Part shown: positions 755 through 58,733 of the stretch, piece after piece | Position numbering within the stretch: the first letter of the stretch is position 1 | How the letters are laid out: every line of letters starts with the position of its first letter | NCBI GenBank assembly: GCA_963822405.1 | Contig: CAWGHH010000004.1 | Span: forward strand, 70,226 to 134,225 | Reading direction: 5' to 3' | DNA: 64,000 nucleotides | From: Candidatus Uhrbacteria bacterium | GTDB lineage: Bacteria > Patescibacteriota > Patescibacteriia > UBA9934 | The notes under the pieces: generated by a model | The model's input: the letters and a program-made list of their open reading frames with translations, nothing else | Told to the model about the DNA's origin: nothing | Database searches by the model: none | Program-made: the position numbers and the translations under genes

Positions 755-784
755 GAGAGGGTCGACACAAAGGTCGACCCCTAC
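755..784. repeat. Family A palindromic element (GAGAGGGTCGAC-acaaag-GTCGACCCCTAC), intergenic rpsG/rpsL
   Basis: Perfect 8-bp arms containing SalI sites. Same 30-nt consensus as copies inside leuS and the rsmB-like gene. Confidence 0.8.
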
Positions 785-3700: not shown

Positions 3701-3706
3701 ATTTAG

Positions 3707-3735
3707 AAGGGTCGACGCATGGGTCGACCCCAACG
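3707..3735. repeat. Family A element (GGGTCGACgcatGGGTCGACCCC), 6 nt upstream of murA start
   Basis: Same sequence class as copies at 29993, 30719, 43655 and 57627. Confidence 0.8.
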
Positions 3736-4282: not shown

Positions 4283-4379
4283 GGTAAAAGAATATATTCG
4301 TCAAAATTTGAGTCGGACCCTCGGCTGAGCCTACGGGCAAGTTACCTCCTAAAAATTTTACCGAACATATTCTTTTACC
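4283..4379. repeat. Family C long hairpin with conserved loop core (expanded variant)
   Basis: Arms GGTAAAAGAATATATTCG / CGAACATATTCTTTTACC around AAATTTGAGTCGGA…TTACCTCCTAAAAATTT. Confidence 0.7.
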
Positions 4380-4455: not shown

Positions 4456-5766
4456 CTAGCACTTCAAGCTGAAGCGCTCTTTCCAATACTCGTACAATTC
4501 ACGACGAACTTCCTGGTCCTCCCAATTAACCCCAAAGATTTCTCTATCCCAGTAGTAGTTCACGTGCGTGAGGAGCTGTTCCCCACGCCGAATACCGTGG
4601 TTCAAGTTATCCGTTGCGTACGCCTCGTTAATCCCGTCGCGCAACGTCGTCACCTTCTGTTCGACGAAGGACCGAATGATCCGATCTTCTTCATCGCGCG
4701 AGATTGTACCGATCAGCTTCACGTCCCAATAATCAATGTTTCGGTTAGGTTTCTTACTGGATTCTTCCTCGCTGCGAATGTGCTCAATGGCCAGTGGAGC
4801 CTCACCCCACAGCTTTTCGCACACGTAGGCAAAAAGGCGCAGAGCATCCTCACGTGTCGGAACACGAAGTTCTCCGTGCTCAAGCACTGCCGCCACAACG
4901 TAGAGTCCGCGTCGCGAATCTTTCACCACGGGATAACCGCTCTCAATGCCGATACACTCCCGCTCGTGCTTCATGGCTCGCGAGAACATGCGCTTACGCG
5001 GGTCATCACTCAAAACAAATTGCGTGAACCCGTTGTGTTTGATGATGCGACACGGAAACTCGGACATGACTACCCGTTGGTGACTCTCCGATTTCGCGCG
5101 CAGATCATTTGCCCACCGTTCGGCCTCTGCTTTATCAAATGTGACCCTTGGCTCCTCAATCAACCGACGTTGTTTACTTGAGTTCAGTCGAAACACAGCG
5201 TAGACCGTAGCCGAATCCTCGGCAAACAACCGATTCGCTGCCAAGTTCTCAAGCATAATGACGTCTTTCGAGATCCACCCGTCAGGATCTACAAGTTCGA
5301 GCTGGAACAACTGCGACGCGATGGCGAAGTTCCGTCGAGCCTCAAAAGCCGCCTGACACGCGAGTGTATCCGTACGTTTTTCCATCTTTTGCCAGAGGTA
5401 CATGAGACCAACCGGGTCAAGCTCGTTCGCGCTCGTGTTGTACGTACGCAAGGACAACGCCTTCGGAAAGAAATAATTTCCGATCAGATATTCCAGATAC
5501 AAGTCTGTGAGCTTAATTGCCTCAACAAACATGTCCCAGAATTTCTCAGCTCCAAGCGACGGGAGATCGATCTCGTCATTCGTTCGGTGTGCCCTCTTCC
5601 AGGCGTGATAAAACGCACCCTTTATACCCGCACCTTTCTTCCGTCGTGCCTCGTACAAACGCAAGATCTTATCGAGCAACTCCATTTCTCGGGCGATCGG
5701 TAAGAATTGAAGCACCTCAGCGGGACAAAAAACGCAATCCGTACGCAGAACCATGACAACCCCCAA
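4456..5766 (-). CDS. Hypothetical protein (436 aa), no recognisable family
   Basis: Long clean ORF. Arg/Glu/Trp-rich soluble protein. C-terminal R-x6-H (RRGEQLLTH) is weakly HEPN-like. Confidence 0.6.
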   Translation of the reverse strand: MGVVMVLRTDCVFCPAEVLQFLPIAREMELLDKILRLYEARRKKGAGIKGAFYHAWKRAHRTNDEIDLPSLGAEKFWDMFVEAIKLTDLYLEYLIGNYFFPKALSLRTYNTSANELDPVGLMYLWQKMEKRTDTLACQAAFEARRNFAIASQLFQLELVDPDGWISKDVIMLENLAANRLFAEDSATVYAVFRLNSSKQRRLIEEPRVTFDKAEAERWANDLRAKSESHQRVVMSEFPCRIIKHNGFTQFVLSDDPRKRMFSRAMKHERECIGIESGYPVVKDSRRGLYVVAAVLEHGELRVPTREDALRLFAYVCEKLWGEAPLAIEHIRSEEESSKKPNRNIDYWDVKLIGTISRDEEDRIIRSFVEQKVTTLRDGINEAYATDNLNHGIRRGEQLLTHVNYYWDREIFGVNWEDQEVRRELYEYWKERFSLKC

Positions 5767-5805
5767 GCGTAAAAAGTAAATTTAAGAATAAGACATTGAC
5801 CCTAA

Positions 5806-5838
5806 CAAATAGCAAAAGACGGCGCAAGTGCGCCGCCT
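5806..5838. terminator. Rho-independent terminator downstream of ndk (minus strand)
   Basis: GGCGCAcTTGCGCC hairpin followed on the minus strand by GTCTTTTGCTATTT. Confidence 0.5.
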
Positions 5839-5840
5839 TC

Positions 5841-5890
5841 AACCACCCTGAACCCCCTTTGGTCCCCCTGGGAGGGGGAAGCGAACCAAC
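5841..5890. repeat. Family B C5/G5 hairpin element, intergenic (downstream of ndk)
   Basis: aaccaccctgaaCCCCCtttggtCCCCCtgggaGGGGGaagcgaacc. Confidence 0.75.
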
Positions 5891-5892
5891 CA

Positions 5893-6360
5893 TTAGATGC
5901 CTTCGCCGAAGTGGTAGATGTCGGTCAATTTGTCGTAGGCGAAGACTTCTTCTGGTTTAAAGAAACGATTAATTTCAACGGTAGCTGCTTCAACGGAGTC
6001 AGAAGCGTGAACCATGTTTGATGGGACGTTCATGGAAAGATCAGCACGGATTGTACCTGCATCAGCTACGCGTGGATTTGTAGCACCGACGATTACGCGG
6101 ACTGTTTCAATGACATCCAAGCCCTCAAGCACCATAGCGATCACCGGGGTCTGCATCATGAACTTTAGAAGTGCCGGAAAGAAAGACTTTTCCTTCAAGT
6201 GGCCGTAGTGCTCAGTGAGTGTAGCTTCATCAAGATGAGCCATCTTCATAGCAACAATCTTCAAACCCTTACGCTCAAAGCGACCAATCACTTCACCGGC
6301 CAATTCACGCTGCAATGCATCTGGTTTAATGAGCACTAATGTCTTTTGAACTTCAGCCAT
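5893..6360 (-). CDS. ndk: Nucleoside diphosphate kinase
   Basis: MAEVQKTLVLIKPDALQRELAGEVIGRFERKGLKIVAMK… is typical NDK. Start at ATG 6358-6360. The longer ORF extension overlaps the upstream gene. Confidence 0.9.
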   Translation of the reverse strand: MAEVQKTLVLIKPDALQRELAGEVIGRFERKGLKIVAMKMAHLDEATLTEHYGHLKEKSFFPALLKFMMQTPVIAMVLEGLDVIETVRVIVGATNPRVADAGTIRADLSMNVPSNMVHASDSVEAATVEINRFFKPEEVFAYDKLTDIYHFGEGI

Positions 6361-6409
6361 AAAAAGTTTGTTTAATTTGCGTAGAAGATACGGGAGGCGG
6401 AAACGTTTG

Positions 6410-7321
6410 TCAAAAGTTGAATGAAGTAATTGAGGGTTCTCCACCGGTACTCGTAACCCTAATACTTCCAAGTTCATCGGTTCGATAAATAGTTGCACCA
6501 AATTTTTCTAGTCGAGTGATTGAATCTTCGTCGGGTAAACCGTATGAGTTTCCTGCGCCAACGGAAATTATCGCCGAGTCTGGGGTGATTGCTTGCAAGA
6601 GTTTTTCACTGGTTGACGTACGGCTGCCGTGGTGGCCAACTTTGAGAACGTCGATGTGACCCATTCGACCCCCCGCATTCAGGCCTGAACCCCCTTTGTC
6701 CCCCTGGAAGGGGGAAGAAGCGAGAAATGCGGCTTCCTGTGCAACACCGGCGTCGCCGGTGAGTAGCATCGTCGTGTCGCCGTAAGTAAGAAGGGCGACA
6801 ACGGAGCCGTCGTTAGCGTCGGACAGCAACGCGCCATCGTATGACTCATTCGGCCAAACGAAATCTAGTCGCGCTCCCCCGCCGAGATCATAAGTGTCGC
6901 CGGCCTTCAAGTGGAGCGCGTCGGGCGCGAGTTTTTCGTACTCATGAAACTCGGGTGTGCCATATCCTTGTCCGCTATCGGCCACCTGCGCAACACGGTA
7001 GCGCTCGAGTACCGGCACGAGACCCATAATGTGATCTGCGTGCGGGTGCGTGTCGATTACGAGGTCTATCGAGCTATCCCACGGCAACATCACACTGGCC
7101 AATTTTTCGAGAATTGACGTATCGGGACCGCCATCGATCAACACCTGCTTCTCGGGACCGTCAATGAATATAGCGTCGCCTTGGCCAACATCAAAAACAA
7201 ATACAGACAACTTTGCAGGTTCAAATAATTTGTCGTTCACGAGTTCAACTCGCCCAATCAAGATACCGACGATAATTATCGGAGTCAGGACTGCTAAAAT
7301 ATTTTTTTTCGAAATCTTCAT
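6410..7321 (-). CDS. ComEC C-terminal metallo-beta-lactamase domain protein, encoded as a separate gene
   Basis: VFDVGQGDAIFI…DTHPHADH…GHHGS MBL motifs. N-terminal TM. 4-nt overlap with the upstream comEC channel gene. Contains the family B repeat in-frame. Confidence 0.8.
   Translation of the reverse strand: MKISKKNILAVLTPIIIVGILIGRVELVNDKLFEPAKLSVFVFDVGQGDAIFIDGPEKQVLIDGGPDTSILEKLASVMLPWDSSIDLVIDTHPHADHIMGLVPVLERYRVAQVADSGQGYGTPEFHEYEKLAPDALHLKAGDTYDLGGGARLDFVWPNESYDGALLSDANDGSVVALLTYGDTTMLLTGDAGVAQEAAFLASSPFQGDKGGSGLNAGGRMGHIDVLKVGHHGSRTSTSEKLLQAITPDSAIISVGAGNSYGLPDEDSITRLEKFGATIYRTDELGSIRVTSTGGEPSITSFNF
6674..6732. repeat. Family B element inside the ComEC-MBL gene, in-frame, flanked by 7-bp inverted repeat CCGCATT/AATGCGG
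   Basis: Encodes SSPFQGDKGGSGLNAGG. Confidence 0.75.
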
Positions 7322-8757
7322 AGGTTAATCGCAGCGAAAGGCAAGGCGGCCATGGCGTCGATGATCCGCAAGATGACGTCGAGGAAGAGCCAACCAGGAA
7401 GAACCAAACCCCCTTTTATTCCCCCTAAAAGGGGGAACCAAGTGAATACATGAACCAATACCCCGAATGTGCCGGTAGCCATGGCGTAAGGTAGAAACGG
7501 GAGGACGAGGAGGTTTGTCACGGGACCGATGATTGATAGCCGATGAAAACCGAAGATGATTACTGGCAAAGTTGCGAACGTGGCGGCGAGGGTGCAAGAG
7601 AGTGATTCGCGTAAACCAAAAGCTTCGGGGATCCATTCAAGTTTAGCAGCAATTGGTTTGGCAAACGCAATTAATCCGGTAGTCGACAAAACAGATAATT
7701 GAAAACCGGTATCGTCCCGCAGGATCCGGGGCTCGATCATGACCATGATGGCCGTTGTCAGCAACAGAGCATTTCGCGCCGAACTTTTGCGACCAAGCTG
7801 CGTCGCTGAAACTGCAATGGCGCCCATGATGCCGGCTCGTAAAACAGCACCGGACCCACCGGCAATAATCACAAACGAAGCAATCGCAAATAACACAAAC
7901 GGAAATGCATACTGTCGTCGGAGTCCCGCATAGATGAGGAACGCTAGCGCCAGCGAAGACACGAGCGCAACGTTGTATCCGCTGGCCGCAACTACATGCG
8001 ACGTACCCGTAGTAATGAATTTCTGTTTCCACTTATCGGAAAATGAATTGTCGCCTAGCAACAAACCGGCGAGTAATTGAGCGTGTGGCTCGCCGTACGT
8101 TCGACGAATTTCCCCCACCGCCTTCTCGTGAATCTTCCCAAGAATAACTTTCGGATTATTTACCTCTTCTCGCTTTAAAATAAATGGTTCACTTCTCGAA
8201 TAACACTGCGCATAAATACTTTTCGCCGCAAGATATCTGTCATATCTAAAACCATCGAGTGGCTCAGGCGCTTCAAGATCGCAATGAACGCCAACTCTGT
8301 CGCCGAGCTCACCGTGAGAATAGAGCGGGACGAAGGTGAGAATTTTGTCGCCAACTTGTTCGCCGTTCACAGCCAATCGTTCGAGCGTTAACGTCTCGCC
8401 TTTCTCGCCAACTGAGTGCGTCATGATGACGCCAGTAACGCTCGCATTTTTTGCGAGGTGAAAAGCGACGGAGTTGGTCGAAGGCGTTGCAAGGGAGTAA
8501 CGCCAGATGCCGAGAAGTGAGGAGAGGGTGAAGAGAGTGAGGAGAACCCCCTTGGTCCCCCTGGAAGGGGGAAGCGAACCACTCCTGACCACCGACTCCC
8601 CCGTAGCCCCCTCTTTGAAAGAGGGGGAGGATACCACCCAACCCACGGCGCAGACGCCGAAGAGAACCAAGACTGGCCAGCCGTAGGACGCAAAAGCGAC
8701 TCCGAAGAGGAGACCTGCGAGGATGCTCGTCAGGATTCTGCTCGGAGTCGCCTTCAT
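7318..8757 (-). CDS. comEC: Competence protein ComEC/Rec2 membrane channel domain (DUF4131 + competence domain)
   Basis: Polytopic membrane protein with ComEC-like sequence. GTG at 8760 or ATG at 8755-8757, overlapping the leuS TGA stop. Carries three family B repeats in-frame. Confidence 0.75.
   Translation of the reverse strand: MKATPSRILTSILAGLLFGVAFASYGWPVLVLFGVCAVGWVVSSPSFKEGATGESVVRSGSLPPSRGTKGVLLTLFTLSSLLGIWRYSLATPSTNSVAFHLAKNASVTGVIMTHSVGEKGETLTLERLAVNGEQVGDKILTFVPLYSHGELGDRVGVHCDLEAPEPLDGFRYDRYLAAKSIYAQCYSRSEPFILKREEVNNPKVILGKIHEKAVGEIRRTYGEPHAQLLAGLLLGDNSFSDKWKQKFITTGTSHVVAASGYNVALVSSLALAFLIYAGLRRQYAFPFVLFAIASFVIIAGGSGAVLRAGIMGAIAVSATQLGRKSSARNALLLTTAIMVMIEPRILRDDTGFQLSVLSTTGLIAFAKPIAAKLEWIPEAFGLRESLSCTLAATFATLPVIIFGFHRLSIIGPVTNLLVLPFLPYAMATGTFGVLVHVFTWFPLLGGIKGGLVLPGWLFLDVILRIIDAMAALPFAAINL
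7401..7440. repeat. Family B element inside comEC, in-frame (encodes FPLLGGIKGG)
   Basis: GAACCaaaCCCCCttttattCCCCCTaaaaGGGGGAACC, flanked by GAACC direct repeats. Confidence 0.75.
8544..8632. repeat. Two adjacent family B elements inside comEC, in-frame
   Basis: Encode SPSFKEGATGES and SLPPSRGTKGVL. Second copy contains the perfect palindrome CCCCCTCTTTgAAAGAGGGGG. Confidence 0.75.
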
Positions 8758-11150
8758 CACACTACGAAGTTCACGATTTTGTTTTTAACAACGATTGTCT
8801 TCTTTGGTTCACTGGTCAAAAACTTCTGCACGTTCTGATCGGCCTTCGCGACCGCAACCACTTCGTCGTCCGCAGAATCTGGGGGCACGGAGATTGTGCC
8901 GCGGAGTTTGCCGTTTACTTGAACAGAGATCGTTACGGCTTCGTCGACGAGTAAAGCAGGATCCACTCCAGGCCAAGCTTGCGCCTCTACAAATCCTTCA
9001 TGCCCAAGCTGTTCCCAAAGTTCGTTTGCGAGATGCGGAGCGAACGGCACCAATAGAAGAAGAAACTTTTCAAAACTTTCTTTTGAAACGCCTTTTTCCT
9101 GAGCCTCGTTCACAAAGATCATGAGGGAAGAGATCGCCGTATTGAAACGGAAACCGGCGATGTCGTCTGTGACTTTTTTGATGGTTTTATTCAATGTGCG
9201 ATCGATCGAGAGAGGGTCGACATTGAAGTCGACCCCTACGCGCTCGGATAACCTCGCGATCTTGTCCAAAAATCGACGAACGCCAATCACGCCATTTGTA
9301 TTCCATGGCACTGGCTCCTCAAATGGTCCCATGAACAACTCGTACACGCGCAAAGTATCCGCACCGAATTCTTTTACAATTTCGTCAGGGTTCACTACGT
9401 TACCTTTTGACTTACTCATCTTTGTTCCGTCCTCAGACATGATGAGGCCATGGGAATGGCGACGAACATATGGCTCACTCGCCGGCACCAATCCTTGATC
9501 AAATAAAAACTTGTTCCAGAACCGTGAGTACAACAAGTGAAGCGTGGTGTGCTCCATGCCACCATTATACAAGTCGACTGGCATCCAGTATTTAAGTGCT
9601 TCTTTCGACGCAAACGCGTTGTCATTATGCGGATCCGCGTAACGCAAGAAGTACCAGCTCGAGCCAGCCCAGTTAGGCATAGTGTCGGTTTCGCGCTTCG
9701 CCGGTCCTCCACATTGAGGACATGCTGTGTTCACAAATGACTCGATAGAAGCGAGAGGAGATTCGCCGTTGTCAGTTGGTTCGTAACGTTCGACTTGAGG
9801 GAGTTCCACGGGGAGTTGAGAGTCGGGAATCGCAACCCAACCACCCTGAGACTCCCCCGTAGCCCCCTCTTGGAAAGAGGGGGAATGTGCACCGTCCTGA
9901 TCACCCTGAGCACAATGCTCGCAGTAGACTAGGGGGATCGGCTCGCCCCAGTAGCGTTGACGGGAAAAGACCCAGTCGCGGAGTTTGAAGGTGGTTTTCT
10001 TAGTACCACCTGACTTAACTATGGCCTCGTCGAACGATACGAGTGGCTTATCGACAATTGACAACTCGAAGGTCTCGGCGAACGCTCGATCACGTTCATC
10101 GTGTTGCGGAACAGCCATAACTGCGCCGGTGCCATAATGGCCAAGTACGTAATCAGCAACCCAAACCGGAACTTTTTCACCGTTAAAAGGGTTGGTCACA
10201 AATGAACCAGTAAACACGCCGGTTTTTTCTTTCGTGTCGTCGCCACGTTCAATCTCTGTTTTCTTTTTTACATCCGCAAGATATTTCGCAACTGCCTTCT
10301 TCTGTTCATCGGTAGTTAGTTTCTCGACCAATGAATGTTCGGGAGCGAGAACCACATAAGTGACGCCATCGATCGTGTCGGGGCGGGTTGTAAATACCCG
10401 GAGGGGGCCGACATCGAAGTCGGCCCGTACGACCCCCTCTGCTCCCCCTAAAAGGGGGAAGGTGATTTCGGCGCCCTCGCTTCGGCCGATCCAGTCTTCC
10501 TGTTGCTTTTTAATCTTTGGCAAATAGTCGACGTCCTTAAGGTCGTCGATCAAACGGTCGGCATACTTGGTGATGGCAATCATCCACTGCTCCTTCTCGC
10601 GCTTTTCAACGGGTGTACCACAGCGTTCGCAGCAACCGCCGACAACTTCCTCGTTCGCCAAACCAATCTTGTCTTTAGGGCACCAGTTGATCATGGTCTT
10701 CGCTTTATAGGCGAGACCAGCTTTAAAAAACTGCAAAAACTGCCACTGCGTCCAACGATAATATTTTGGATCAGTTGTATTGATCTCCCTCGACCAGTCA
10801 AAACTAAAACCAATAGATTGAAGTTGGCGACGGAAATTATCGACGTTTGTCTTAGTGACAACGGCCGGATGAACACCCATCTTTATGGCGTAATTTTCCG
10901 TCGGCAATCCAAATGCGTCCCAACCCATTGGGAACAAAACATTTTTGCCTTCCATTCTTTTCTTTCGAGCGACAACATCAAGTGCGGTATAACTGCGCGG
11001 ATGACCCACGTGAAGTCCCTCGCCGGACGGATAAGGAAACTCGACCAAAACATAATACTTGTCTTGACCCGAATCCTTCGCGTGAAAAATGCCAGAATCT
11101 TCCCAACGCTTCTGCCACTTGGGATCAATCAAAGAATGGTTGTAGGACAT
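8757..11150 (-). CDS. leuS: Leucyl-tRNA synthetase
   Basis: Begins MSYNHSLIDPKWQKRWEDSGIFHAKDSGQDKYYVLVEFPYPSGEGLHVGHP with HIGH and KMSKS (KMSKSKGN) motifs. TGA stop. Contains two family A and two family B repeats in-frame. Confidence 0.95.
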   Translation of the reverse strand: MSYNHSLIDPKWQKRWEDSGIFHAKDSGQDKYYVLVEFPYPSGEGLHVGHPRSYTALDVVARKKRMEGKNVLFPMGWDAFGLPTENYAIKMGVHPAVVTKTNVDNFRRQLQSIGFSFDWSREINTTDPKYYRWTQWQFLQFFKAGLAYKAKTMINWCPKDKIGLANEEVVGGCCERCGTPVEKREKEQWMIAITKYADRLIDDLKDVDYLPKIKKQQEDWIGRSEGAEITFPLLGGAEGVVRADFDVGPLRVFTTRPDTIDGVTYVVLAPEHSLVEKLTTDEQKKAVAKYLADVKKKTEIERGDDTKEKTGVFTGSFVTNPFNGEKVPVWVADYVLGHYGTGAVMAVPQHDERDRAFAETFELSIVDKPLVSFDEAIVKSGGTKKTTFKLRDWVFSRQRYWGEPIPLVYCEHCAQGDQDGAHSPSFQEGATGESQGGWVAIPDSQLPVELPQVERYEPTDNGESPLASIESFVNTACPQCGGPAKRETDTMPNWAGSSWYFLRYADPHNDNAFASKEALKYWMPVDLYNGGMEHTTLHLLYSRFWNKFLFDQGLVPASEPYVRRHSHGLIMSEDGTKMSKSKGNVVNPDEIVKEFGADTLRVYELFMGPFEEPVPWNTNGVIGVRRFLDKIARLSERVGVDFNVDPLSIDRTLNKTIKKVTDDIAGFRFNTAISSLMIFVNEAQEKGVSKESFEKFLLLLVPFAPHLANELWEQLGHEGFVEAQAWPGVDPALLVDEAVTISVQVNGKLRGTISVPPDSADDEVVAVAKADQNVQKFLTSEPKKTIVVKNKIVNFVV
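9208..9239. repeat. Family A element inside leuS, in-frame (encodes GVDFNVDPL)
   Basis: GAGAGAGGGTCGACattgaaGTCGACCCCTAC within the leuS reading frame. Confidence 0.8.
9841..9910. repeat. Family B element inside leuS, in-frame (encodes SPSFQEGATGESQGG), bounded by 9-bp direct repeats CACCCTGAG
   Basis: CCCCCTCTTggAAAGAGGGGG core. Direct repeats at 9842-9850 and 9902-9910. Confidence 0.75.
10401..10463. repeat. Composite family A variant (GGGCCGACatcgaaGTCGGCCC) + family B element inside leuS, in-frame
   Basis: Encodes …RADFDVGPL… and …FPLLGGAEG… in LeuS. Adjacent CCCCCTAAAAGGGGG hairpin. Confidence 0.75.
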
Positions 11151-11519: not shown

Positions 11520-11526
11520 GGGACTA

Positions 11527-11588
11527 CGAATGTCCTCGTTAAAATTTGGAGTCGGATTACCTCCTGGCAAATTTTTCCGAGAACATTC
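11527..11588. repeat. Family C hairpin between the GDH-like gene and the rhodanese gene
   Basis: Arms CGAATGTCCTCG / CGAGAACATTCG around AAATTTgGAGTCGGATTACCTCCTggcAAATTTTT. Confidence 0.65.
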
Positions 11589-11596
11589 TTCGTCCA

Positions 11597-12900: not shown

Positions 12901-13578
12901 ATGCACAAATATTTTCTATATTCAGGCGTAACTGCATCCCTAGTTCTCTGTCTGACTGGCGCGGTCTATGTCAACGCTCAAACTAACCGCATACTTCTTG
13001 ATAACCGCGCGATCATTAATACTAATCCGGTAGTGAATAAATATTTTACCAGTACCGGCACGTATTCCTCTGCAAATATTGATCCACAAACTGAACAAGG
13101 AACACTGTCAGCCAGCAAGACAGACGTCAAATATGGAAAAGTTATAACCGATTTCCTGATTACCCCGCAGACTACTTTTCTGAGAAAATATGGAGGCTCA
13201 ACTACCCTGAGTGATTTCAAGCTAGATGAAGAGCTATCAATCTACGCCCAACGAAATACTGACGGTTCGCTCACAGCAATTACCGTAACGGACAATAATC
13301 TTTGGTTCCTCGATCCCGTCATCTCGATTGGCGAAATATCAGCCATTGACCTTGAAAAAAATACTTTATCCGTCATAGATTCCGCCTCAAAGAAAACCTA
13401 TGCCGTAGCGTATACGGACGAAACTGACATCCAAAAACCAAAAGCTGTCTCTGGTACAGAATCAGACCTTGTGGTAGGAAAAAACATCCGCGTCCGAGGT
13501 TTGGTACGCAAAACAGGTTCAACCACTAACATTGAACAGGCGTACGTAATTTGGATTCTCCCCGAACACGGCGAATAA
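12901..13578 (+). CDS. Secreted hypothetical protein
   Basis: Signal-peptide-like MHKYFLYSGVTASLVLCLTGAVYVNAQ. ORF may start at 12847. Confidence 0.5.
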   Translation: MHKYFLYSGVTASLVLCLTGAVYVNAQTNRILLDNRAIINTNPVVNKYFTSTGTYSSANIDPQTEQGTLSASKTDVKYGKVITDFLITPQTTFLRKYGGSTTLSDFKLDEELSIYAQRNTDGSLTAITVTDNNLWFLDPVISIGEISAIDLEKNTLSVIDSASKKTYAVAYTDETDIQKPKAVSGTESDLVVGKNIRVRGLVRKTGSTTNIEQAYVIWILPEHGE

Positions 13579-13579: not shown

Positions 13580-14512
13580 ATGAAAGACCCACTTCCAGCG
13601 GCACTACGCGAAAGGCTAATAAAACAATGGGGCACGGGAACCTATTCCGCCATGCTCCAGGCTTTTTCCGTTAACCGAAAACCAACTTTCCGCGTCAACA
13701 CATTAAAAGCCACGGACGAAGAAGTAATGAGCATTTTTCGTGATGAACAAATCATGTTCGAACGGATCAAAACCGTCCCTCACGCCTTCATGGTTAAGAA
13801 TTTAACGGATGACGAATTACTCGAGCGCCCCCTCACCAAAGAAGGGAAAATTTACATGCAGGGGGTTTCGTCGATGATTCCACCAATCGTTCTCCTTGAA
13901 GAGAGAGGGCCGACATCGAAGTCGGCCCCTACCACCGCGTTGCGGGTTCTTGATCTTTGCGCGGCGCCGGGATCGAAGACGACCGAGATGGCAATGATGA
14001 CAAATAACTCAACGGAAATTATTGCGACCGAGGATAACGAGGTACGTTTTCAAAAGCTCGAAAATACGATTCGGATACAAGGCGCAAAAGTTGACGCCCG
14101 ACATACGGATGGCACGCTTCTGCACAAAGAATTTCCGGAATATTTTGACAAGGTCTTGGTCGATGCTCCCTGCTCTGCTGAAGGTCGAATTAACATCAAT
14201 GAAAAACGGACTTTTGGCTATTGGTCAGAAAAAAATATTGTCGAGCATGCCAAACTCCAACGTCGGCTTCTACGAGCCGCTGTGAGCTGTCTCAAGCCCG
14301 GTGGAACACTCGTCTACTCTACCTGTACCCTTGCACCCGAAGAAAATGAAAAAATGGTCGAGTGGCTCATCACCGAGTTCCCCCAAATGAAACCCGCCGA
14401 AATCACACTCTCCCTCCAAAACATCAAAAAAACTGCTCACAAAACCATCACGATGTTGCCAGCCGAAAACATGGAGGGGTTCTTTGTGGCGAAACTGGTA
14501 AAGGCCTCATAG
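13580..14512 (+). CDS. 16S rRNA m5C methyltransferase, RsmB/RsmF (NOL1/NOP2/Sun) family
   Basis: LDLCAAPGSKT (SAM-binding) and DAPCSAEG / YSTCT catalytic Cys motifs. Family A repeat in-frame at 13901-13933. Confidence 0.8.
   Translation: MKDPLPAALRERLIKQWGTGTYSAMLQAFSVNRKPTFRVNTLKATDEEVMSIFRDEQIMFERIKTVPHAFMVKNLTDDELLERPLTKEGKIYMQGVSSMIPPIVLLEERGPTSKSAPTTALRVLDLCAAPGSKTTEMAMMTNNSTEIIATEDNEVRFQKLENTIRIQGAKVDARHTDGTLLHKEFPEYFDKVLVDAPCSAEGRININEKRTFGYWSEKNIVEHAKLQRRLLRAAVSCLKPGGTLVYSTCTLAPEENEKMVEWLITEFPQMKPAEITLSLQNIKKTAHKTITMLPAENMEGFFVAKLVKAS
13901..13933. repeat. Family A variant inside the rsmB-like gene, in-frame (encodes ERGPTSKSAPT)
   Basis: GAGAGAGGGCCGACatcgaaGTCGGCCCCTACC. Confidence 0.8.
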
Positions 14513-14525
14513 CCCAGAAGCGAAC

Positions 14526-14602
14526 GGGTAATGAGACATTATTCCCAAAAATTTGAGTCGGATTACCTCCTAAAAATTTTTAGAAACAATGTCTCATTAC
14601 CC
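14526..14602. repeat. Family C hairpin between convergent rsmB-like gene and 14666 ORF
   Basis: Arms GGGTAATGAGACATT / AATGTCTCATTACCC around AAATTTGAGTCGGATTACCTCCTAAAAATTT. Confidence 0.75.
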
Positions 14603-14665
14603 GAAAAGAAAAACCGTCCAAGCCACGAGGCTCGGACGGTCTGTTGCTGACGATGTACCTTGATG

Positions 14666-21748: not shown

Positions 21749-22261
21749 ATGAGTTTTCCCAATAGAACATTCAGGCTCGTCTGGAGCGTTTGTCTATTAA
21801 TCGGACTTTCATTTTCCGGTCTTTTAATTGCGCGCGCTACTACCCCAAATCCAGGACACGCTTGGTCAGGAGTTGGTGACGGACTTTTTGCTACTACGGG
21901 TCCAACTGTGCTTCGCACTTTTACCTTCCCGGATGCTGACGCCACCATCCTGACTTCGCTTACAACAGACTTTGGTGGTGCAAACTCAACCATGACCGTT
22001 TGTAACACGGCCACTTGTGACACTCTTTCTCTAGCCACGAACACTGATGCCGACACTGTTTCAATTGGCGATTCCTTAGACACTCTCAACTTTGCCGGCA
22101 CGACGGTTGCCACAACACTCACTACAACGAGCAGTGCTACTTTCGCTTCATCAACCACAAATAGCGACATACTGGCAATTAAGCCTCAATCTGGTACAGC
22201 TACAGCAACCTACACCGGAACAATCACTTCCGCGGATCTGGCGACTACTAATCGTACTTGA
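21749..22261 (+). CDS. Giant surface protein, N-terminal segment with signal peptide, ended by an in-frame TGA
   Basis: Signal peptide MSFPNRTFRLVWSVCLLIGLSFSGLLIARA. Sequence continues in the same frame after TGA 22259-22261 into the next segment. Confidence 0.7.
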   Translation: MSFPNRTFRLVWSVCLLIGLSFSGLLIARATTPNPGHAWSGVGDGLFATTGPTVLRTFTFPDADATILTSLTTDFGGANSTMTVCNTATCDTLSLATNTDADTVSIGDSLDTLNFAGTTVATTLTTTSSATFASSTTNSDILAIKPQSGTATATYTGTITSADLATTNRT

Positions 22262-24574: not shown

Positions 24575-25560
24575 CGTCGGGATCGGTGGCGCATCACTTG
24601 GCAAGTTATCCGTCGACGGCGACACTGACGAAATTCAATTGTTGATCCAAGGAAATGCCACCCAAACCTCTAACCTGGCGGTTTTCGAAACAAGCGCGGG
24701 CACTGACCTCTTTGCGATTTCAGGAGCGGGTGAATTAACACAAACCTACACCGGCGCAGGCAACGCATCTTCCATCACGTCCACCACTACTACCAATGGA
24801 TCTAAAGGCTTAATAGTATCAAATACTGGCGTTGTAACAGGGAGGGGTTACGCGGGATTCTTCTCTAAAACTGGAGCATCCACAACCAACGTTGGTCTTT
24901 ATGCCTCCGCCTCCGGGGCAACAGATAATTACGCGGCCATTTTTGACTCTGGGTACGTAGGAATCGGGACCACAAGTCCTATTGCAAAATTGAACATTCA
25001 GGGTTGGTGGGCTCAAACCCTAATGGACGGCGATAGCCTTGCCATAAGAAAACCAAACTACGCCGGTGGCGGATGGGCCAGAACTTTGATGGACTTCCAA
25101 GAATATGACGGCTCAACTCTAACAAGCATGGGAGCATTTGGCTCAAATAATACATTCGTTTACGGATATATTGGAGCTGCGTACAATGACACTACTTTCC
25201 AATGGTACCCAGATAAAAGCGTAGCCTTCAACGGTAGCGTCGGTATCGGCGACACCAGTCCGGCTGCCGCTTTCGTGGTTGGCAACGGAGACCTGTTCCA
25301 AGTAACTTCCGCCGGAATCATTGCCGCCGCCACCGGGATCACTTCAACGGGTAACGTCAACTTCACTGGAGCAATTCTTACCGGCGCTTCGCCGCTCTCT
25401 TTTGACGGTGCAACGGCAGGTGGCATCAAAACGATTTTTGCCATTACCGATCCTACCGTTGCAGATAAAACAATCACCTTCCCAAATGCCACCGGTACTG
25501 TTGCTCTGACTTCCGACCTAGCAATTGCCGGTGGTTGGACAGATGGCGGAACTGACGTAA
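22270..25560 (+). repeat. Three tandem ~1.1 kb near-identical coding modules within the giant surface gene
   Basis: Modules beginning WTDGGTDVTLTTSTDNVGIGGASLGKLSVDGDTDEIQLL recur at ~22320, ~23420 and ~25540 with high DNA identity. Confidence 0.75.
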
Positions 25561-28500: not shown

Positions 28501-30284
28501 CTAACGCTATCGGTAGCGTAACCTCCTTAGTAAAATCTGTCAGCGAATACCAAGCAAACATAATCGGCATCGCCTCAGATAACCACGGCGATTTCTCGAG
28601 TGCCGGTTACAACGTAATGGATGCCGATAACCCCATGCCCGTCGCCCTTAACGGTCGCGTCCCAGTCAAGATTGCGAACACCTCCGCCCCAATCGTCGCC
28701 GGCGACTACATCACCACCTCAAGTGAAGCTGGCAAAGGCATGAAAGCTACACTGTCCGGCGTTGTTATCGGTAAAGCACTCGAATCATGGATCCCTGACA
28801 ACGGCCAAGCGACCGTCATGGTTTTCGTCGAGCAGGGATACAGTACCGGCTCCGGAACCGACCTCGCAGAAATGTATTACTCGACAGATGAAACTATCGC
28901 GAAGGGCGACCTCGTTCGCATTGACGACAACATTCACGCCGGCGTAGCAAAAACAAACGGTACTTACGACGGAACTATCCTCGGCATTGTCGCTAGCCGA
29001 CCAGGTCTCGTGCTTCACGATCCAAAAGAAGCACATGAAGGCACAGCAGTACTCGTTGCTCTTGTTGGTCGAGTGCCTGTCAAAGTAACTACCGCTAACG
29101 GAGATGTTCATGCTGGCGACCTACTTACTTCCTCAGCTATTCCAGGAGTAGCCATGAAAGCTACCGCCGGCGGTCGAGTGATTGGTCAGGCGCTCTCTTC
29201 ATACACAGACGCCGGTGAAGGAATAGTGCAGGTATTTATTAATAATTCTTACGCCCCGACAGAAGTCTTTGCGCAGATAAATGCAGGTGCTTCAGTCACT
29301 AATCCAACTGTCGATCCAGTTGCCCCGGCATTCGTCACCACTGCCGATTTCGCTACAGCTCTCAATGAGATGAACAGTAGTTTGAACGCGCACGTTGCAA
29401 ACGAGCTTATCATCACGGACGCTCTCTCGGCTGGTGTATCTGGTCTTAATGATCGAGTCACCACCCTCGAAACCACCGTTTCCGCCAATGTTTCTGCACT
29501 TGCGGACGTTTCGACCCGTTTAATTGCGCTAGAACAAAATAGCCTAAGCCTTACTAGCCTGAATTTGCCTGGCGCCTTAGAAGTTACTGGTACCACAAAA
29601 CTCACCGGCGGATTACAGGTTGATTCGATAAGTTCTATCGGTTCTTCGATCAACTTCGCATCCGACATCAATCTCATCGGTCGCCCACTCTTTAATAAGG
29701 ACACAGGTGGCTTTGCGATTATCCACACCGGCGACACGTTCGTTCGCGTCACGTTTGAAAAGCCTTATGTCACTACGCCGGTTGTCGATGCATCCGTGAC
29801 TTTCAATGCTATCACTGATGAAATCGTGGCCGCGCAAGCTGAAGCTGATTATTTCGCGAGCGGAATGCACCTCATCGTAACCAGAAAAGACGTAACGGGA
29901 TTCACCATCATGTTGAATGCCCCGGCAACTACAGACCTGTCGTTCAACTGGATCGCGCTTGCCATTACGGATGCGAGAACGGATGAGTCGGTAGGGTCGA
30001 CGCTTGGGTCGACCCCGACACCGGTTGTTGCTGGCGCTACTGATCCTGCGCCTATTGATCCGACACCAATCCCAGATCCAACTCCGGTAGTTGATCCAGC
30101 ACCAATCATTGATCCCGTTCCCGTCGATCCAACACCTGTCGTAGACCCAACCCCAATCATCGATCCAGCCCCAATCGTTGACCCCGCTCCGATCGATCCA
30201 GTATTGGTCGACCCAATACCTGCCCCTATCGATCCGGCTCCGATTATTGATCCCGTGCCAGTCGATCCAGCCCCTGTAATCTAA
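24516..30284 (+). CDS. Giant surface protein, main segment (1922 aa)
   Basis: Continues the module WTDGGTDVTLTTSTDNVG exactly where the previous frame breaks. C-terminal DPxPI(I/V)DP repeats. Family A repeat in-frame at 29993-30020. Confidence 0.7.
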   Translation: MLAVRADGGTDITLTTSTDNVGIGGASLGKLSVDGDTDEIQLLIQGNATQTSNLAVFETSAGTDLFAISGAGELTQTYTGAGNASSITSTTTTNGSKGLIVSNTGVVTGRGYAGFFSKTGASTTNVGLYASASGATDNYAAIFDSGYVGIGTTSPIAKLNIQGWWAQTLMDGDSLAIRKPNYAGGGWARTLMDFQEYDGSTLTSMGAFGSNNTFVYGYIGAAYNDTTFQWYPDKSVAFNGSVGIGDTSPAAAFVVGNGDLFQVTSAGIIAAATGITSTGNVNFTGAILTGASPLSFDGATAGGIKTIFAITDPTVADKTITFPNATGTVALTSDLAIAGGWTDGGTDVTLTTSTDNVGVGGASLGKLSVDGDTDEIQFLVQGNATQNANLAVFENSSGTDLVTIDSLGAIAQTYAGTASTATTISMTNLTYGSGLLVIGSGAAMQSGGNLLNLSMGAATQGQAISIATTGIYTDTSGVINMFAGSLTSGIAENIEISGLTTGTGINVTGGYSMATGSELLNLNMGAATAGNGAIVTTTGIYTGTGLATLTANSATTGTGEAISMTGVTTGTGLSITGGSSMTTNGELLDLTMGTAAAGNAINITSTGVYTGTGIIKANANILTSGTLLALSSPSSAQSTAIFLDLAQTGVTTGFSGNLINLSSTATTGAAKFINLTADSSTVGIGENISMTGLTTGTGLSITGGSSMTANGELIYLNTSTAATGSAINIDNAGTYTGTGLIDLSATGMTTGTGLAITAGGLLGTGGRLTELDMGTSTAGNAINIDAISNWYEGTGLIAMTAPYLDQGTALSINSGTVGDNMADAGELIDLQLGPSSIGHGIKITDSGAYTGTGLILITANGLTTGKVINIPHTTSVIASGGSLINLSSTSIDTATTSGSLLNLSSTASTAGTQFLQTYSGLTTGIGQSIVSNALTSGKLLSLASSSTGQTSGTFLDIAQTGVTTGYTGNLLNISSSSTTGAAKFLNILADASTVGTGIELSMDALTTGKGINITSTSAGQTSASLLNIAQTGVTTGFTGSLVNISSSSTTGAGSKFLNIVADASTVGTGINLSMAAMTSGVGISITGSGASMSTGKLIDLQLGANTTGNGLAIVSSGAYSGAGIISITADSATNGTGVYISMTGRTGGQALAIIGGTGMANGTYLANLDLGAATAGAGFIAQTSGAYTGTGLGIISAPNATSGEMLLISSSGLTSSGHAISIVSGSTSGGIIIAGNGNTATSIDADGQVRIGFSTTTSSVAVCSTLGAGAAPVSGTSYFLRDCAGTITADYAEMYPVETGIEYGDILTTGTTPISVYAALPDGSGLDPTNAIGSVTSLVKSVSEYQANIIGIASDNHGDFSSAGYNVMDADNPMPVALNGRVPVKIANTSAPIVAGDYITTSSEAGKGMKATLSGVVIGKALESWIPDNGQATVMVFVEQGYSTGSGTDLAEMYYSTDETIAKGDLVRIDDNIHAGVAKTNGTYDGTILGIVASRPGLVLHDPKEAHEGTAVLVALVGRVPVKVTTANGDVHAGDLLTSSAIPGVAMKATAGGRVIGQALSSYTDAGEGIVQVFINNSYAPTEVFAQINAGASVTNPTVDPVAPAFVTTADFATALNEMNSSLNAHVANELIITDALSAGVSGLNDRVTTLETTVSANVSALADVSTRLIALEQNSLSLTSLNLPGALEVTGTTKLTGGLQVDSISSIGSSINFASDINLIGRPLFNKDTGGFAIIHTGDTFVRVTFEKPYVTTPVVDASVTFNAITDEIVAAQAEADYFASGMHLIVTRKDVTGFTIMLNAPATTDLSFNWIALAITDARTDESVGSTLGSTPTPVVAGATDPAPIDPTPIPDPTPVVDPAPIIDPVPVDPTPVVDPTPIIDPAPIVDPAPIDPVLVDPIPAPIDPAPIIDPVPVDPAPVI
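29993..30020. repeat. Family A element inside giant surface gene, in-frame (encodes GSTLGSTPTP)
   Basis: GGGTCGACgcttGGGTCGACCCC. Confidence 0.8.
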
Positions 30285-30307: not shown

Positions 30308-30814
30308 GTGGTAGCATTATGCAGTATGAAAACAATTTCAAAGGCTAAGCCTGACTCTATGAACAAACTCACGGTCATCGGTCTCCTTATATTTGCCCTG
30401 GCATCCGTAGGCGGAAACGTTTTTCTTGGAGTGAAGTATTTCTCCGCACCAAAAGTAATCAGCGTGCTTGATGAAAATCAAAAAATTATTGCTGACGTGG
30501 GTAAACTCATGGAACTACCAACTGACGAGTTGCCGACTGTAGCTAAAGTCGACGATCCGCAGCAACTCATAGATCAAGGCGTGTTCACTAAAGTTCAAAA
30601 AGATGACACGGTGCTTATTTATCCAAAAGCTAAGCGAGCTATTCTTTACCGCCCAAGCACCAATAAAATTATCGAGGTGGCCACCGTGAATATCACTGAT
30701 ACACCACCAGCGGCTACGAACGGGTCGACGCTTGGGTCGACCCCAACGCCAACGACGCCACCGGCTCCCGCGCCAATCCCGGCACCTGCCCCAACACCCA
30801 CCCCTACGCCGTAG
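30308..30814 (+). CDS. Membrane-anchored protein, paralog of the N-terminal domain of 47241..47933
   Basis: TM helix, then LPTDE…ILYRPSTNKIIEVATVNIT aligning to the LPTDE…ILYRPSTDQIIQVASINVS domain of 47241..47933. Pro/Thr-rich tail. Family A repeat in-frame. Confidence 0.6.
   Translation: MVALCSMKTISKAKPDSMNKLTVIGLLIFALASVGGNVFLGVKYFSAPKVISVLDENQKIIADVGKLMELPTDELPTVAKVDDPQQLIDQGVFTKVQKDDTVLIYPKAKRAILYRPSTNKIIEVATVNITDTPPAATNGSTLGSTPTPTTPPAPAPIPAPAPTPTPTP
30719..30748. repeat. Family A element inside 30308..30814, in-frame (encodes GSTLGSTPTP)
   Basis: Identical 23-nt core to the copy at 29993. Confidence 0.8.
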
Positions 30815-30823
30815 GCCCTTCTG

Positions 30824-31831
30824 GTGTACGGGCTTGGCGCCGCCAAGCCCTTACGTATGATTACATCCAAACCAATCATTCTCTACGCGGCATTGATAGG
30901 CCTTCTTTTTGGCATGCCTTTTCAAGCGCTCGCCGGCACTCTCTCTTGCTCGGTAACAACCTCATGCCCAACGGGCACTGTGCTTTACCGCCTTTATGAT
31001 CCGAACGGCAATCACGCCGAGATGCCCAGCCAATCACTCTATACATATATGGTGTGCTGCACCGGCGTCGCTGGCCTGGGCAATAGCTGTGCTACTGGCG
31101 TGAACGCAGTTGTCGTCAAACTTTCGAGCACAACAAATGCACACATAGAACAAAACTCCCAGTCCAACTATTCCGGTAATGACGCCTGCTTATCAGTCGA
31201 TGCTGGTGGCTCGGTCTCGGTTGGTTATCAAGCCACTAATTGCAGCGGCTACGATACAACCATTGGCTCAATGACAGCGGTAACCAATAGCCACGTTGGG
31301 GATGGCGCCGCCTATGCCGTCAAAATCTGCGCGACCGCCCTACCGCCACAGACATTAACCTTCAACGTCTCAGATAACACGATCGGATTCGGAACACTTT
31401 CCGCAATTGTTCCCAGGTATGCAACGGGAGACGCCCAAGGGTCAGGCGCGGAAGTAGAAGCGCATACCTTAGCGATCAGTACATCAGCAGCAAACGGCTA
31501 CACGCTCACAATTAGAGGCACAACTCTTGCGGACGGTGGGAATGTCATAACCCCGATAGGCGGAACTAACACAGCCCCAATCCCCGGGTCAGAACAGTTC
31601 GGCTTAAGGCTAGTGGCAACTGGTGGATCAGGTACGGTAACTTCCCTGTATGGAGCTTCAGGATTTGCTTTCAATGCCACTGACTCTACTACCATCCAAG
31701 TAGCCACAGAGAATCCTGGAGATGAAGTGACCACCACATACTCAGCACGCTATCTTGCAAACATTACAAACACCACACAACCTGGAAGTTACGCAGCCAC
31801 ACTCACCTATATAGTAACGGGATCATTTTAA
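30824..31831 (+). CDS. Secreted Cys-rich beta-protein, paralog of 31945..33075
   Basis: Signal peptide. Shared C-terminal domain TLTFNVSDNTIGFGTL … YxxTLxYIxTGxF. Confidence 0.6.
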   Translation: MYGLGAAKPLRMITSKPIILYAALIGLLFGMPFQALAGTLSCSVTTSCPTGTVLYRLYDPNGNHAEMPSQSLYTYMVCCTGVAGLGNSCATGVNAVVVKLSSTTNAHIEQNSQSNYSGNDACLSVDAGGSVSVGYQATNCSGYDTTIGSMTAVTNSHVGDGAAYAVKICATALPPQTLTFNVSDNTIGFGTLSAIVPRYATGDAQGSGAEVEAHTLAISTSAANGYTLTIRGTTLADGGNVITPIGGTNTAPIPGSEQFGLRLVATGGSGTVTSLYGASGFAFNATDSTTIQVATENPGDEVTTTYSARYLANITNTTQPGSYAATLTYIVTGSF

Positions 31832-43381: not shown

Positions 43382-44062
43382 ATGCCATTTCTGTTAATCG
43401 ACAAGCCCGCCGGAATAACGTCGCATGATGTTGTAGACAAAGTTCGTAAGATAACCGGCGAACGGACTGTTGGTCACGCAGGAACTCTTGACCCTTTCGC
43501 GACAGGCTTATTGATCGTTGGCGTTGGGCGAGACTGCACCAAGCAACTTTCGACATATTTGGGCATGGATAAGGAGTATGAGGCTGAATTCGTGATAGGA
43601 GCGACCACAGAAACATTAGACCCGGAAGGAACGGTCGTCATTTCCCCATCACCGTGGGTCGACGCACGGGTCGACCCCAACGCCGAGATCCGTGACGCAA
43701 TGAAGAAACTCACCGGCGAAATCTCCCAAGTCCCTCCAATGCACTCGGCCATAAAAATAGGGGGACAAAAGATGTATGACCTAGCCAGAAAGGGAGAAAC
43801 GGTGGATATTCCGCCTCGAACACTCACCATTCACTCTTTTGAGTTACTCGACCAGCCAGATTTATCTATTTGGCCAATGGTGCTCAAGGTTAGAATTTCG
43901 TGTTCCTCGGGTACCTATATTAGAGCCTTAGCCCGAGACCTCAGCCAGCTTTTAGGTACAACGGGTTACGTTTCAGCACTTCGACGTACTAAAATCGGGG
44001 AATATTCGGTAACCTCTGCAAAAACCCTTGGCGAGCTGAGCTCTCCCGTGTTACCCTCTTAG
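43382..44062 (+). CDS. truB: tRNA pseudouridine(55) synthase
   Basis: HAGTLDPFATGLL catalytic Asp motif. Family A repeat in-frame (WVDARVDP) at 43655-43680. Confidence 0.9.
   Translation: MPFLLIDKPAGITSHDVVDKVRKITGERTVGHAGTLDPFATGLLIVGVGRDCTKQLSTYLGMDKEYEAEFVIGATTETLDPEGTVVISPSPWVDARVDPNAEIRDAMKKLTGEISQVPPMHSAIKIGGQKMYDLARKGETVDIPPRTLTIHSFELLDQPDLSIWPMVLKVRISCSSGTYIRALARDLSQLLGTTGYVSALRRTKIGEYSVTSAKTLGELSSPVLPS
43655..43680. repeat. Family A element inside truB, in-frame (encodes WVDARVDP)
   Basis: GGGTCGACgcacGGGTCGACCCC. Confidence 0.8.
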
Positions 44063-57409: not shown

Positions 57410-57712
57410 CTACGGTGTCACCTGGATCATGGATCCAGCAAAATGCGCAATAATCAAAACAATTCCAATTCCCATAATAATGAGGGCGAGCTGGAAAATG
57501 GCCTTCGCGTCCTTATCGTCAGACACGAAACCGACGAATATATATGAGGCAAAACCCAGAATTAACATTGCTGGCACACCAGCCAAGACGATTCCAACCA
57601 GTAATAATGGTGACATATATGTGGTAGGGGTCGACCCATGCGTCGACCCATTTATATACATTATAACAGAAAAAATAATGGAGGGCGCATGAGCCCTCCG
57701 AACGACGGTCAC
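57410..57712 (-). CDS. Small hydrophobic membrane protein (start uncertain)
   Basis: Two predicted TM helices. A family A repeat lies within or just upstream of the N-terminus and encodes GSTHGSTPTT. Confidence 0.35.
   Translation of the reverse strand: MTVVRRAHAPSIIFSVIMYINGSTHGSTPTTYMSPLLLVGIVLAGVPAMLILGFASYIFVGFVSDDKDAKAIFQLALIIMGIGIVLIIAHFAGSMIQVTP
57627..57649. repeat. Family A element (GGGGTCGACCCatgcGTCGACCC) in small membrane ORF region
   Basis: Encodes GSTHGSTP in the 57410..57712 frame. A degenerate half-copy lies at 58055-58075. Confidence 0.7.
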
Positions 57713-58730: not shown

Positions 58731-58733
58731 TGC

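Follow-up and report, generated by a model that had tools for sequence, protein, structure and literature searches.

Two hairpin repeats resembling REP elements lie side by side in a translated loop of leuS in a patescibacterium

Repetitive extragenic palindromes (REPs) tagged with the tetranucleotide GTAG form a superfamily of units of 20-40 bp, in which a stem of 6-13 bp carries at one end an unpaired GTAG or, in some families, GYAG, GTRG, GTMG or GTGG (Di Nocera et al. 2013, PMC3733652). Subfamilies differ by complementary changes of the stem, and the units are mainly extragenic, typically found just downstream of open reading frames (ORFs) and often right after stop codons; intragenic minorities exist in several species, tRNA synthetase genes and truB being among the hosts, and over half of these inserts occur as dimers or groups, which code for 20-30 residues (PMC3733652). 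Here we describe a composite of two hairpin repeats, termed families A and B, at 10401-10463 within leuS, the gene for leucyl-tRNA synthetase, in a stretch of 64 kb (contig CAWGHH010000004.1, positions 70,226 to 134,225; hereafter the window) from a bacterium that, judged by its closest leuS loci and its protein names, belongs to the Patescibacteria (Candidate Phyla Radiation, CPR), near Uhrbacteria. We propose, with a probability of roughly 0.7, that this block of 60 nt consists of two non-autonomous repeats of the REP kind that entered a permissive loop of leuS by independent in-frame insertions, B and then A.

CPR genomes are very small and are usually thought to be poor in mobile DNA. The hairpins of the window resemble GTAG-tagged REPs in being multi-copy within these 64 kb, in forming subfamilies by compensated stem changes and by their loops, and in having some copies after stop codons and some in tRNA synthetase and truB genes; families A and a third one, C, though not the tagless B, have the anatomy of the GTAG-tagged REPs that go with REP-associated tyrosine transposases (RAYT/TnpA-REP; PMC3733652; PMC2817692). 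They depart from the published GTAG-tagged REPs in their host, a phylum outside the published surveys that we found, and in the mostly intragenic location of the A-type copies. The composite is a new example of intragenic grouped repeats of the REP type, a kind already known, in a phylum without an earlier description, as no paper linking REPs to CPR bacteria was found in the literature searched; it extends such repeats, including copies translated within essential genes, to the Patescibacteria. Like the Rickettsia palindromic elements (RPEs; Ogata et al. 2000, as cited in PMC3733652, which calls them "longer palindromic insertions"), the repeats are in frame, translated and located at tolerated surface positions in essential genes, but the units described here are 27-36 nt long and unrelated in sequence, and the host of the RPEs is alphaproteobacterial. 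Different units a few nucleotides apart also recall the bacterial interspersed mosaic elements (BIMEs) and other grouped REPs, yet BIMEs are extragenic arrays of alternating orientation with defined linkers, whereas here two unlike units, each of which also occurs alone, share a coding loop. For comparison, the classic RPE-1 measures about 100-150 nt, and the palindromes of placozoan and Volvox mitochondria are reportedly short GC-rich hairpins spread in a compact genome; the hairpin and GC-cluster repeats of organelles differ from ours in their setting and are unrelated in sequence.

The original prediction that two different hairpin families meet in leuS was borne out, both being multi-copy in the window. 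Family A is a unit of 30 nt that, tag first, consists of GT[A/T]G, GGG[T/C]CGAC, a loop of 6 nt, GTCG[A/G]CCC and a tail of 4 nt, often TCTC. Palindromes of the type GGGYCGAC-N6-GTCGRCCC occur 9 times, compared to 0.26 expected from shuffled sequences. Family B (27-30 nt) has the form C5-(TTGGT-like)-C5-loop-G5, or C5-loop-G5-spacer-G5 on the gene strand, and the pattern CCCCCT-N4-GGGGG is found at 5 sites (10 strand matches) compared to 0.42 expected from shuffles, while family C reads C5-GTAG-CCCCCTC-loop-GAGGGGG. A search for direct repeats yielded the same families (D11 and D6 correspond to A, D8 to B and D18 to C), and altogether the 64 kb contain 9 A-type, 5 B and 2 C copies where fewer than one was expected. 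The stems are 8-9 bp long in A, 5-6 bp in B and 7-9 bp in C. Judged by their common architecture and their common tail (G5..TCAGGGTGG on the gene strand), B and C form one superfamily. An Rfam scan of the window returned two tRNAs only and no family for the A, B or C hairpins.

The stems of family A pair perfectly. In 13 copies, taken from the window and from the related loci L081 and L082, all 104 of 104 stem cells pair, and the changes between stems comprise 5 that are compensated on both arms, none that is one-sided and none of the G-U type, with four pair types at one position. The tag of these copies is GTAG in 8, GTTG in 3, GTCG in 1 and GTAC in 1, the last being the copy of the composite; it is degenerate in 5 of the 13, and GTTG, GTCG and GTAC are outside the published list of variants (PMC3733652). 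GTAG is the commonest tetranucleotide beside hairpins in the window (6 of 110 heads), and it is also the tag of family C.

Copies within ORFs account for 6 of the 9 A-type, 4 of the 5 B and both C repeats, and the intergenic ones adjoin stop codons. Translation of family A uses three frames or more and both orientations (peptides in Table 1), and copies reside in three intergenic spacers as well; family B is read in all three frames and has one copy just after the ndk stop codon. As both families occur in several frames and in intergenic DNA, and A in both orientations too, the conserved unit is the DNA and not the peptide. The orientation of 8 of the 9 A copies is the same, as is that of all 7 B and C copies, and the GC skew is uniform; these numbers are small, and the tags of A and C are on opposite strands. 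A role as DNA uptake sequence was considered and rejected, given that GGGTCGAC and GGGCCGAC are found almost exclusively as the two arms of hairpins. At the empty sites no common target motif was evident.

Within leuS, positions 10401-10470 of the plus strand read gagGGGCCGACATCGAAGTCGGCCCgtacGACCCCCTCTGCTCCCCCTAAAAGGGGGAAGGtg. The palindrome GGGCCGACATCGAAGTCGGCCC at 10405-10426 is followed by GTAC at 10427-10430 and then by the C5/G5 block at 10431-10462; the statement that the palindrome is directly followed by this block was thus right apart from these 4 nt, which, read on the opposite strand, make up element A's degenerate GTAG tag. Written in parts, the plus strand at 10401-10463 is GAGG-GGGCCGAC-ATCGAA-GTCGGCCC-GTAC-GA-CCCCC-TCTGCT-CCCCC-TAAAA-GGGGG-AAGGTG, and the gene strand is composed of TTC, CCCCTTTTAGGGGGAGCAGAGGGGGTC, GTACGGGCCGACTTCGATGTCGGCCCCCTC and CGG. 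As had been claimed, both hairpins are read in the LeuS frame of the minus-strand ORF: the block translates as F-PLLGGAEGV-VRADFDVGPL-R between the conserved motifs ...SEGAEITF and VFTTRPDT..., and LeuS reads ...EITFPLLGGAEGVVRADFDVGPLRVFTTRPDT... across it. The TTC that opens the B unit doubles as a native Phe codon. Compared to leuS of L081, the closest relative, the block is a net insertion of 16 codons. Hairpins A and B fold better than shuffled sequences on either strand, as single-stranded DNA or as RNA (z from -2.2 to -3.9). The two units abut and neither interrupts the other, contrary to the suggestion of a nested insertion. An assembly artefact was rejected, as the leuS ORF is intact.

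The loci of the closer relatives were obtained by a protein search plus contig look-ups. The gene order rsmB, GDH, rhodanese, leuS, comEC, ndk ... rpsL, rpsG is kept in L081, L082 and L084, whose leuS genes are 78%, 76% and 71% identical to that of the window at the nucleotide level, and a neighbour-joining tree of LeuS has the form (P0005/L084,(P0003/L082,(P0002/L081,window))). As a further point against an assembly artefact, the records of L082 and L083 (JGI, ENA) are identical over 22.6 kb, although the same reads possibly lie behind both. A separate scan of a genome collection gave 80 leuS loci, all of at most 71% identity, and in none of them were the A and B patterns found.

Comparing the loop between ...TT[CT] and GT[ACT]TT[CT]AC..., we find four states: that of L081 is GGCGATATTGCT (GDIA, 4 codons) and has no hairpin, that of L084 is CCCCTTTTAGGGGGACCAGAGGGGGTC followed by GGACACGCAGTCACC and holds B only, that of L082 is CGTGCC, GTAGGGGTCGATCCAAGTATCGACCCCATC and ACC and holds an A-type unit only, and that of the window holds B, A and CGG. 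Therefore A and B are separable and reached the loop in separate events. Rather than recurring as a whole wherever A occurs, the 63-nt block is replaced in relatives by empty, A-only and B-only loops, and the other A and B copies of the window are solo or have a different partner, further indicating separate events. The 22-nt palindrome of the A unit in the loop, which is absent from the loops of L081 and L084, is identical to that of the rsmB copy (13907-13928), and as the rsmB copy is absent from L081 and L082, this A subfamily was copied recently in the lineage of the window. The A unit in the loop of L082 differs in both stem and loop and is therefore an independent hit. The B unit of the window, on the other hand, matches that of L084 at the same position in 26 of 27 nt and is closer to it than to the other B copies of the window, and this near-identity indicates that B is probably older at this site than A. 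The most likely order is therefore B first, followed by a recent copy of A.

The site itself, a tolerant surface loop, is a hot spot. Among 26 close LeuS sequences the length of the loop varies from 4 to 36 residues, and in the lineages P0016, P0013, P0039, P0007 and P0035 it is occupied by an unrelated palindromic repeat similar to GTCATTCTGAGCAAAGCGAAGAATCTC, translated as "SHSEQSEES/HPERSEG". The LeuS of T. thermophilus shows an alignment gap at the position of the insert, and in an AlphaFold model of LeuS, which is mediocre (mean pLDDT 68.9) and was used together with the T. thermophilus alignment for loop and strand context only, the insert (235-249) is modelled with low confidence as a coil that joins strand 221-231 to strand 250-254. 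We take this location to be the beta-ribbon by which the chain passes from the catalytic core to the CP1 editing domain. Loops also harbour the other elements of leuS: C follows the CxxC knuckle, and the A copy at 9210 lies between a pair of helices in the anticodon-binding domain. Spots outside leuS are re-used as well, L082 carrying other GTAG-headed hairpins at the places that B (after ndk) and A (after rpsL) occupy in the window. Repeated hits on a few permissive positions can by themselves bring two families together, and the permissive loop explains the coincidence of A and B.

The states of the loop (empty, A only, B only, A with B, unrelated repeat) form a natural series that can be used to date insertions, to test precise excision and to learn how an essential enzyme absorbs inserts. 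They also carry a warning for annotation, in that lineage-specific "inserts" of 9-23 residues in housekeeping proteins of CPR bacteria may be repeat DNA and not adaptive features. We observed the motif GTCATTCTGAGCRAAGCGAAGAATC (translated "SHSE.SEES/HPERSEG"; L205, 6749-6775; L086, 3556; L115, 919; L123, 1212) in this same leuS loop in other CPR lineages and again in unrelated metagenome contigs that carry GTAG hairpins; the GTCATTCTGAGCAAAGCGAAGAATCTC motif is likewise present in unrelated metagenome contigs.

In the mechanism that we propose, A and B would have entered the same site of leuS, defined to the codon, on separate occasions and would since have been translated as part of LeuS. 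With lengths that are multiples of three and with most frames free of stop codons, an insertion would merely lengthen the loop, and copies would persist where the protein tolerates a longer loop, here the beta-hairpin loop from the catalytic core to the CP1 editing domain. Copying may proceed through single-stranded hairpin DNA, driven by a RAYT/TnpA-REP-type Y1 HUH transposase whose gene would lie elsewhere in the genome. That A and B adjoin would then result mainly from the scarcity of permissive sites, possibly aided by local spread.

Enzymes of this type do occur in the phylum: a patescibacterial metagenome-assembled genome of 35% GC (L009) encodes at 1560-2360 a Y1_Tnp protein (PF01797) flanked on both sides by TGTGCAGCAC...GTGCTGCACA palindromes, an arrangement resembling a REPtron, and has a second HUH-like ORF at 5728-6369. 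A metagenome contig, L189, contains at 300-900 a Y1_Tnp-like ORF with two opposite GTAGGGGCCGATGCCCACATCGGCCC hairpins inside it and a third hairpin at its end, which resembles the insertions of REPs within tnpA-REP genes (PMC6006769). A scan of metagenomes with the A pattern returned at least 120 stretches, which are unrelated REPs of gut and soil, and CPR relatives were not among the matches listed; hairpins of GTAG plus GGGSCGA are abundant in these gut and soil contigs and often form inverted pairs, and L189 is one such contig, with these hairpins inside its Y1_Tnp gene. Among the matches listed, the "N8" regions of the hairpins extend the stem in 143 of 151 cases.

Several observations weigh against two simple REP insertions. 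Family B has no GTAG-like tag and carries TTGGT, TCTGCT and similar sequences in its place. Inverted A-A pairs, the head-to-head or tail-to-tail doublets known as REPINs, which are the mobile unit of REP-RAYT systems, are absent from the window within 200 nt, unlike published GTAG-tagged REPs and unlike the unrelated metagenome matches listed, among which they are common. A RAYT (PF01797) is usually flanked by its REPs. A Pfam scan of the ~55 ORFs across the 64 kb found no Y1 or other transposase, so that mobilisation by a RAYT is something we infer. Only a single native loop codon (CGG) is left in the composite, which does not look like a simple insertion; similarly, the A copy at 9210 adds just 3 codons net, where L084 and others have ~8 native codons, and the B copy near the C-terminus of comEC causes no net change of length compared to L081. 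On the tree, B before A requires either that B was lost twice or that the same subfamily was gained twice at this site. Finally, the cores are conserved beyond their surroundings: between the window and L081 the A copy at 9210 is identical in 26 of 26 nt outside its loop with flanks at 70%, between the window and L082 the C core in leuS is identical in 36 of 36 nt with flanks at 80%, and the flanks of the B unit shared with L084 are at 71%. A purely selfish and decaying insert does not predict an element that is better conserved than its host gene. Such high conservation would follow if the hairpin is under selection, if the copies evolve in concert or if the site has been occupied anew. The loops behave differently, that of the A copy at 9210 being TTCAAT in the window and CCATGC in L081 (6 of 6 bases differ). 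What deserves further study is the unusually high intragenic fraction, the sites that look like replacements and the strongly conserved cores.

The preference for pre-existing hairpins that was originally suggested is the alternative that survives best, as a considerably less probable but serious one that is compatible with a permissive loop: new copies would land beside, or within a few kb of, existing hairpins, and B would have attracted A. A second composite spans 8547-8628 in comEC, where B and C are ~12 nt apart, and under random placement one or more pairs no more than 5 nt apart would arise with a probability of 0.025, and two or more pairs no more than 20 nt apart with one of 0.002; moreover, all 7 copies of the B/C type are on one strand within 5853-10465 (4.7 kb), a span with a probability of ~5e-6. 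This random-placement null overlooks, however, how few coding positions can accommodate an insertion. Clustering of REPs is known, and the members of one GTAG family insert within other small palindromes (PMC3733652). Yet the loop of L082 took up an A-type copy without B and that of L084 has B alone, the unrelated repeat fills the same loop in other lineages, and most A copies in the window are solo. A preference for hairpins is thus not needed to account for leuS, where a permissive loop suffices, but the comEC composite and the B/C cluster make local spread a fair possibility.

The hairpins could also be actively maintained, site-specific modules of coding DNA in this CPR lineage and not ordinary selfish REPs, which we consider unlikely. 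This idea draws on the re-occupation of the same codon positions by different families, on cores that are 96-100% identical while the host diverges by 20-29%, on the copies that replace native codons and on the confinement of the C5-tag-C5-loop-G5 architecture to a neighbourhood of 4.7 kb. If true, it would imply a targeted mechanism of patch insertion or conversion, possibly without a RAYT, and a structural role for hairpins in the genes of a minimal genome.

Also unlikely is that the hairpins are kept for a function. They could serve as a DNA or mRNA structure, for instance one that marks a domain boundary with a pausing or stabilising signal, or extend the LeuS loop in a useful way. In orthologous copies their cores greatly exceed the flanking codons in conservation while their loops vary freely, their stems are always perfectly paired with compensated changes, and in the mRNA the second of B's G5 runs is able to pair with the C-rich tail of the A unit in the leuS loop, lengthening the helix. 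Against this, the units are also intergenic, unrelated genes carry them, and all three frames and both orientations are represented; moreover, the closest relative, L081, does without the block. The lack of changes of the G-U type fits DNA palindromy better than selection on RNA, and concerted evolution among copies could yield the same conservation.

No more probable than a function is templated patching, i.e., gene conversion or template switching from other copies in place of cut-and-paste or copy-and-paste transposition. It would explain the replacement-like sites, as the composite, the 9210 site and the comEC C-terminus all show a net change of length far below the size of the element, and it would fit the orthologous copy at 9210 in L081, which has the loop of a different subfamily though tag, stem and tail are identical. 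The rsmB copy is nevertheless a clean insertion of 30 nt, the empty sites show no evident flanking homology by which conversion could be guided, and the same outcome is reached if an element inserts and neighbouring loop codons are then deleted. That A and B are a single composite element which arrived in one insertion, as their abutment with no spacer beyond the 4-nt tag might suggest, is refuted by the empty, A-only and B-only loops of L081, L082 and L084, and no other A+B pair was found in the window or in 2.5 Mb of further DNA compared.

Table 1. Positions of the hairpin repeats and related features in the window (in L081 for the last line)
Feature	Position	Strand	Remarks
leuS, leucyl-tRNA synthetase	8757..11150	-	797 aa; ORF intact; HVGH and KMSKS motifs; four repeat-derived segments
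Family A, leuS loop	10401..10430	-	GTAC + GGGCCGAC-TTCGAT-GTCGGCCC + CCTC; encodes VRADFDVGPL
Family B, leuS loop	10431..10460	-	TTC-CCCC-TTTTA-GGGGG-AGCAGA-GGGGG-TC; encodes (F)PLLGGAEGV
Family A, leuS anticodon-binding domain	9210..9239	-	GTAG-GGGTCGAC-TTCAAT-GTCGACCC-TCTC; encodes VGVDFNVDPL; position common to L081 and L082
Family C, leuS just after CxxC knuckle	9849..9884	+	CCCCC-GTAG-CCCCCTC-TTGGAAA-GAGGGGG; encodes SPSFQEGATGES
Family C, comEC	8594..8628	+	encodes SPSFKEGATGES
Family B, comEC, second composite	8547..8581	+	different frame, SLPPSRGTKGV
Family B, near comEC C-terminus	7409..7445	+	encodes FPLLGGIKGG; position matches a C5/G5 hairpin in L082
Family B, metallo-beta-lactamase-fold gene	6690..6724	+	third frame, SSPFQGDKGG; within a 19-codon insertion compared to L082
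Family B, intergenic, directly after ndk stop codon	5853..5888	+	
Family A, rsmB, opposite to gene	13903..13932	-	ERGPTSKSAPT; clean insertion compared to L081 and L082
Family A, intergenic, rpsL/rpsG	755..784	-	
A-type, GTTG tag, intergenic, upstream of aroA (EPSP synthase)	3705..3734	-	family D6
A-type, GTCG tag, 1923-aa ORF	29990..30019	-	encodes GSTLGSTPTP
A-type, GTTG tag, 187-aa ORF	30718..30747	-	encodes GSTLGSTPTP
A-type, GTTG tag, truB	43652..43681	-	encodes WVDARVDPNA
A-type, GTAG tag, intergenic	57624..57653	+	sole A copy with its tag on the plus strand
Element with ~31-nt centre, copies	11521-11595, 14525-14603, 58642-58732		
Element with ~31-nt centre, centre only	46010-46045, 56066-56120		
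Element with ~31-nt centre, interrupted copy	about 4300-4360		
Element with ~31-nt centre in L081	17594-17668		one copy recurring, at a different locus

Apart from these copies, a few observations concern the genes that carry the repeats. At the C site of leuS in L082 (11380-11480), a tandem duplication of GGGGAGTCTCAGG, which encodes GESQGGHGESQAG, comes after the C element, indicating that the tail of the element can expand locally. The comEC gene of the window (7318-8760) encodes ~62 residues more than its counterparts in L081, L082 and L207; the extra part is in the N-terminal region, at about 8480-8690, and resembles two added hydrophobic helices with the C and B repeats encoding the loop between them. 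An AT-rich palindrome, CCGGTAGTGAATAAATATTTTACCAGTACCGG, is located at 13027-13058, at or beside an insertion of 10-12 codons that is specific to the window in a DUF5666-like gene, and it may be another kind of palindromic insert. A GC-rich hairpin, GTAC-GGGCTTGGCG-C-CGCCAAGCCC-TTAC, is found at 30826-30854 at the start of the ORF 30815-31831, with the tag-like GTAC/GTAA on both sides.

The window also contains an intergenic element with a conserved centre of ~31 nt, AAATTTGAGTCGGATTACCTCCTAAAAATTT, the reverse complement of which contains AGGAGGT (positions in Table 1). On either side of the centre are inverted-repeat arms of 28-36 nt, and each locus has its own; they are wholly different between copies, yet each pair is 82-94% complementary. 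This combination of a conserved loop and a long co-varying stem suggests a structured RNA or DNA element, for which Rfam gave no match.

Large internal or paralogous repeats are present at 22040-25770 and 49320-55040 (families D1-D5, D10, D14-D15, D19-D20), with ~1.09-kb units recurring between 22 and 26 kb, and 150-300-nt units within the 2059-aa ORF at 49418-55597. The ORFs scanned in the 22-24.5 kb region had no match in Pfam, and the products of these repeat-rich ORFs are probably repetitive surface proteins. Two tRNA genes are divergent, at 58395-58467 on the minus strand and at 58570-58643 on the plus strand, and the second ends where the 58642-58732 copy of the ~31-nt-centre element begins.

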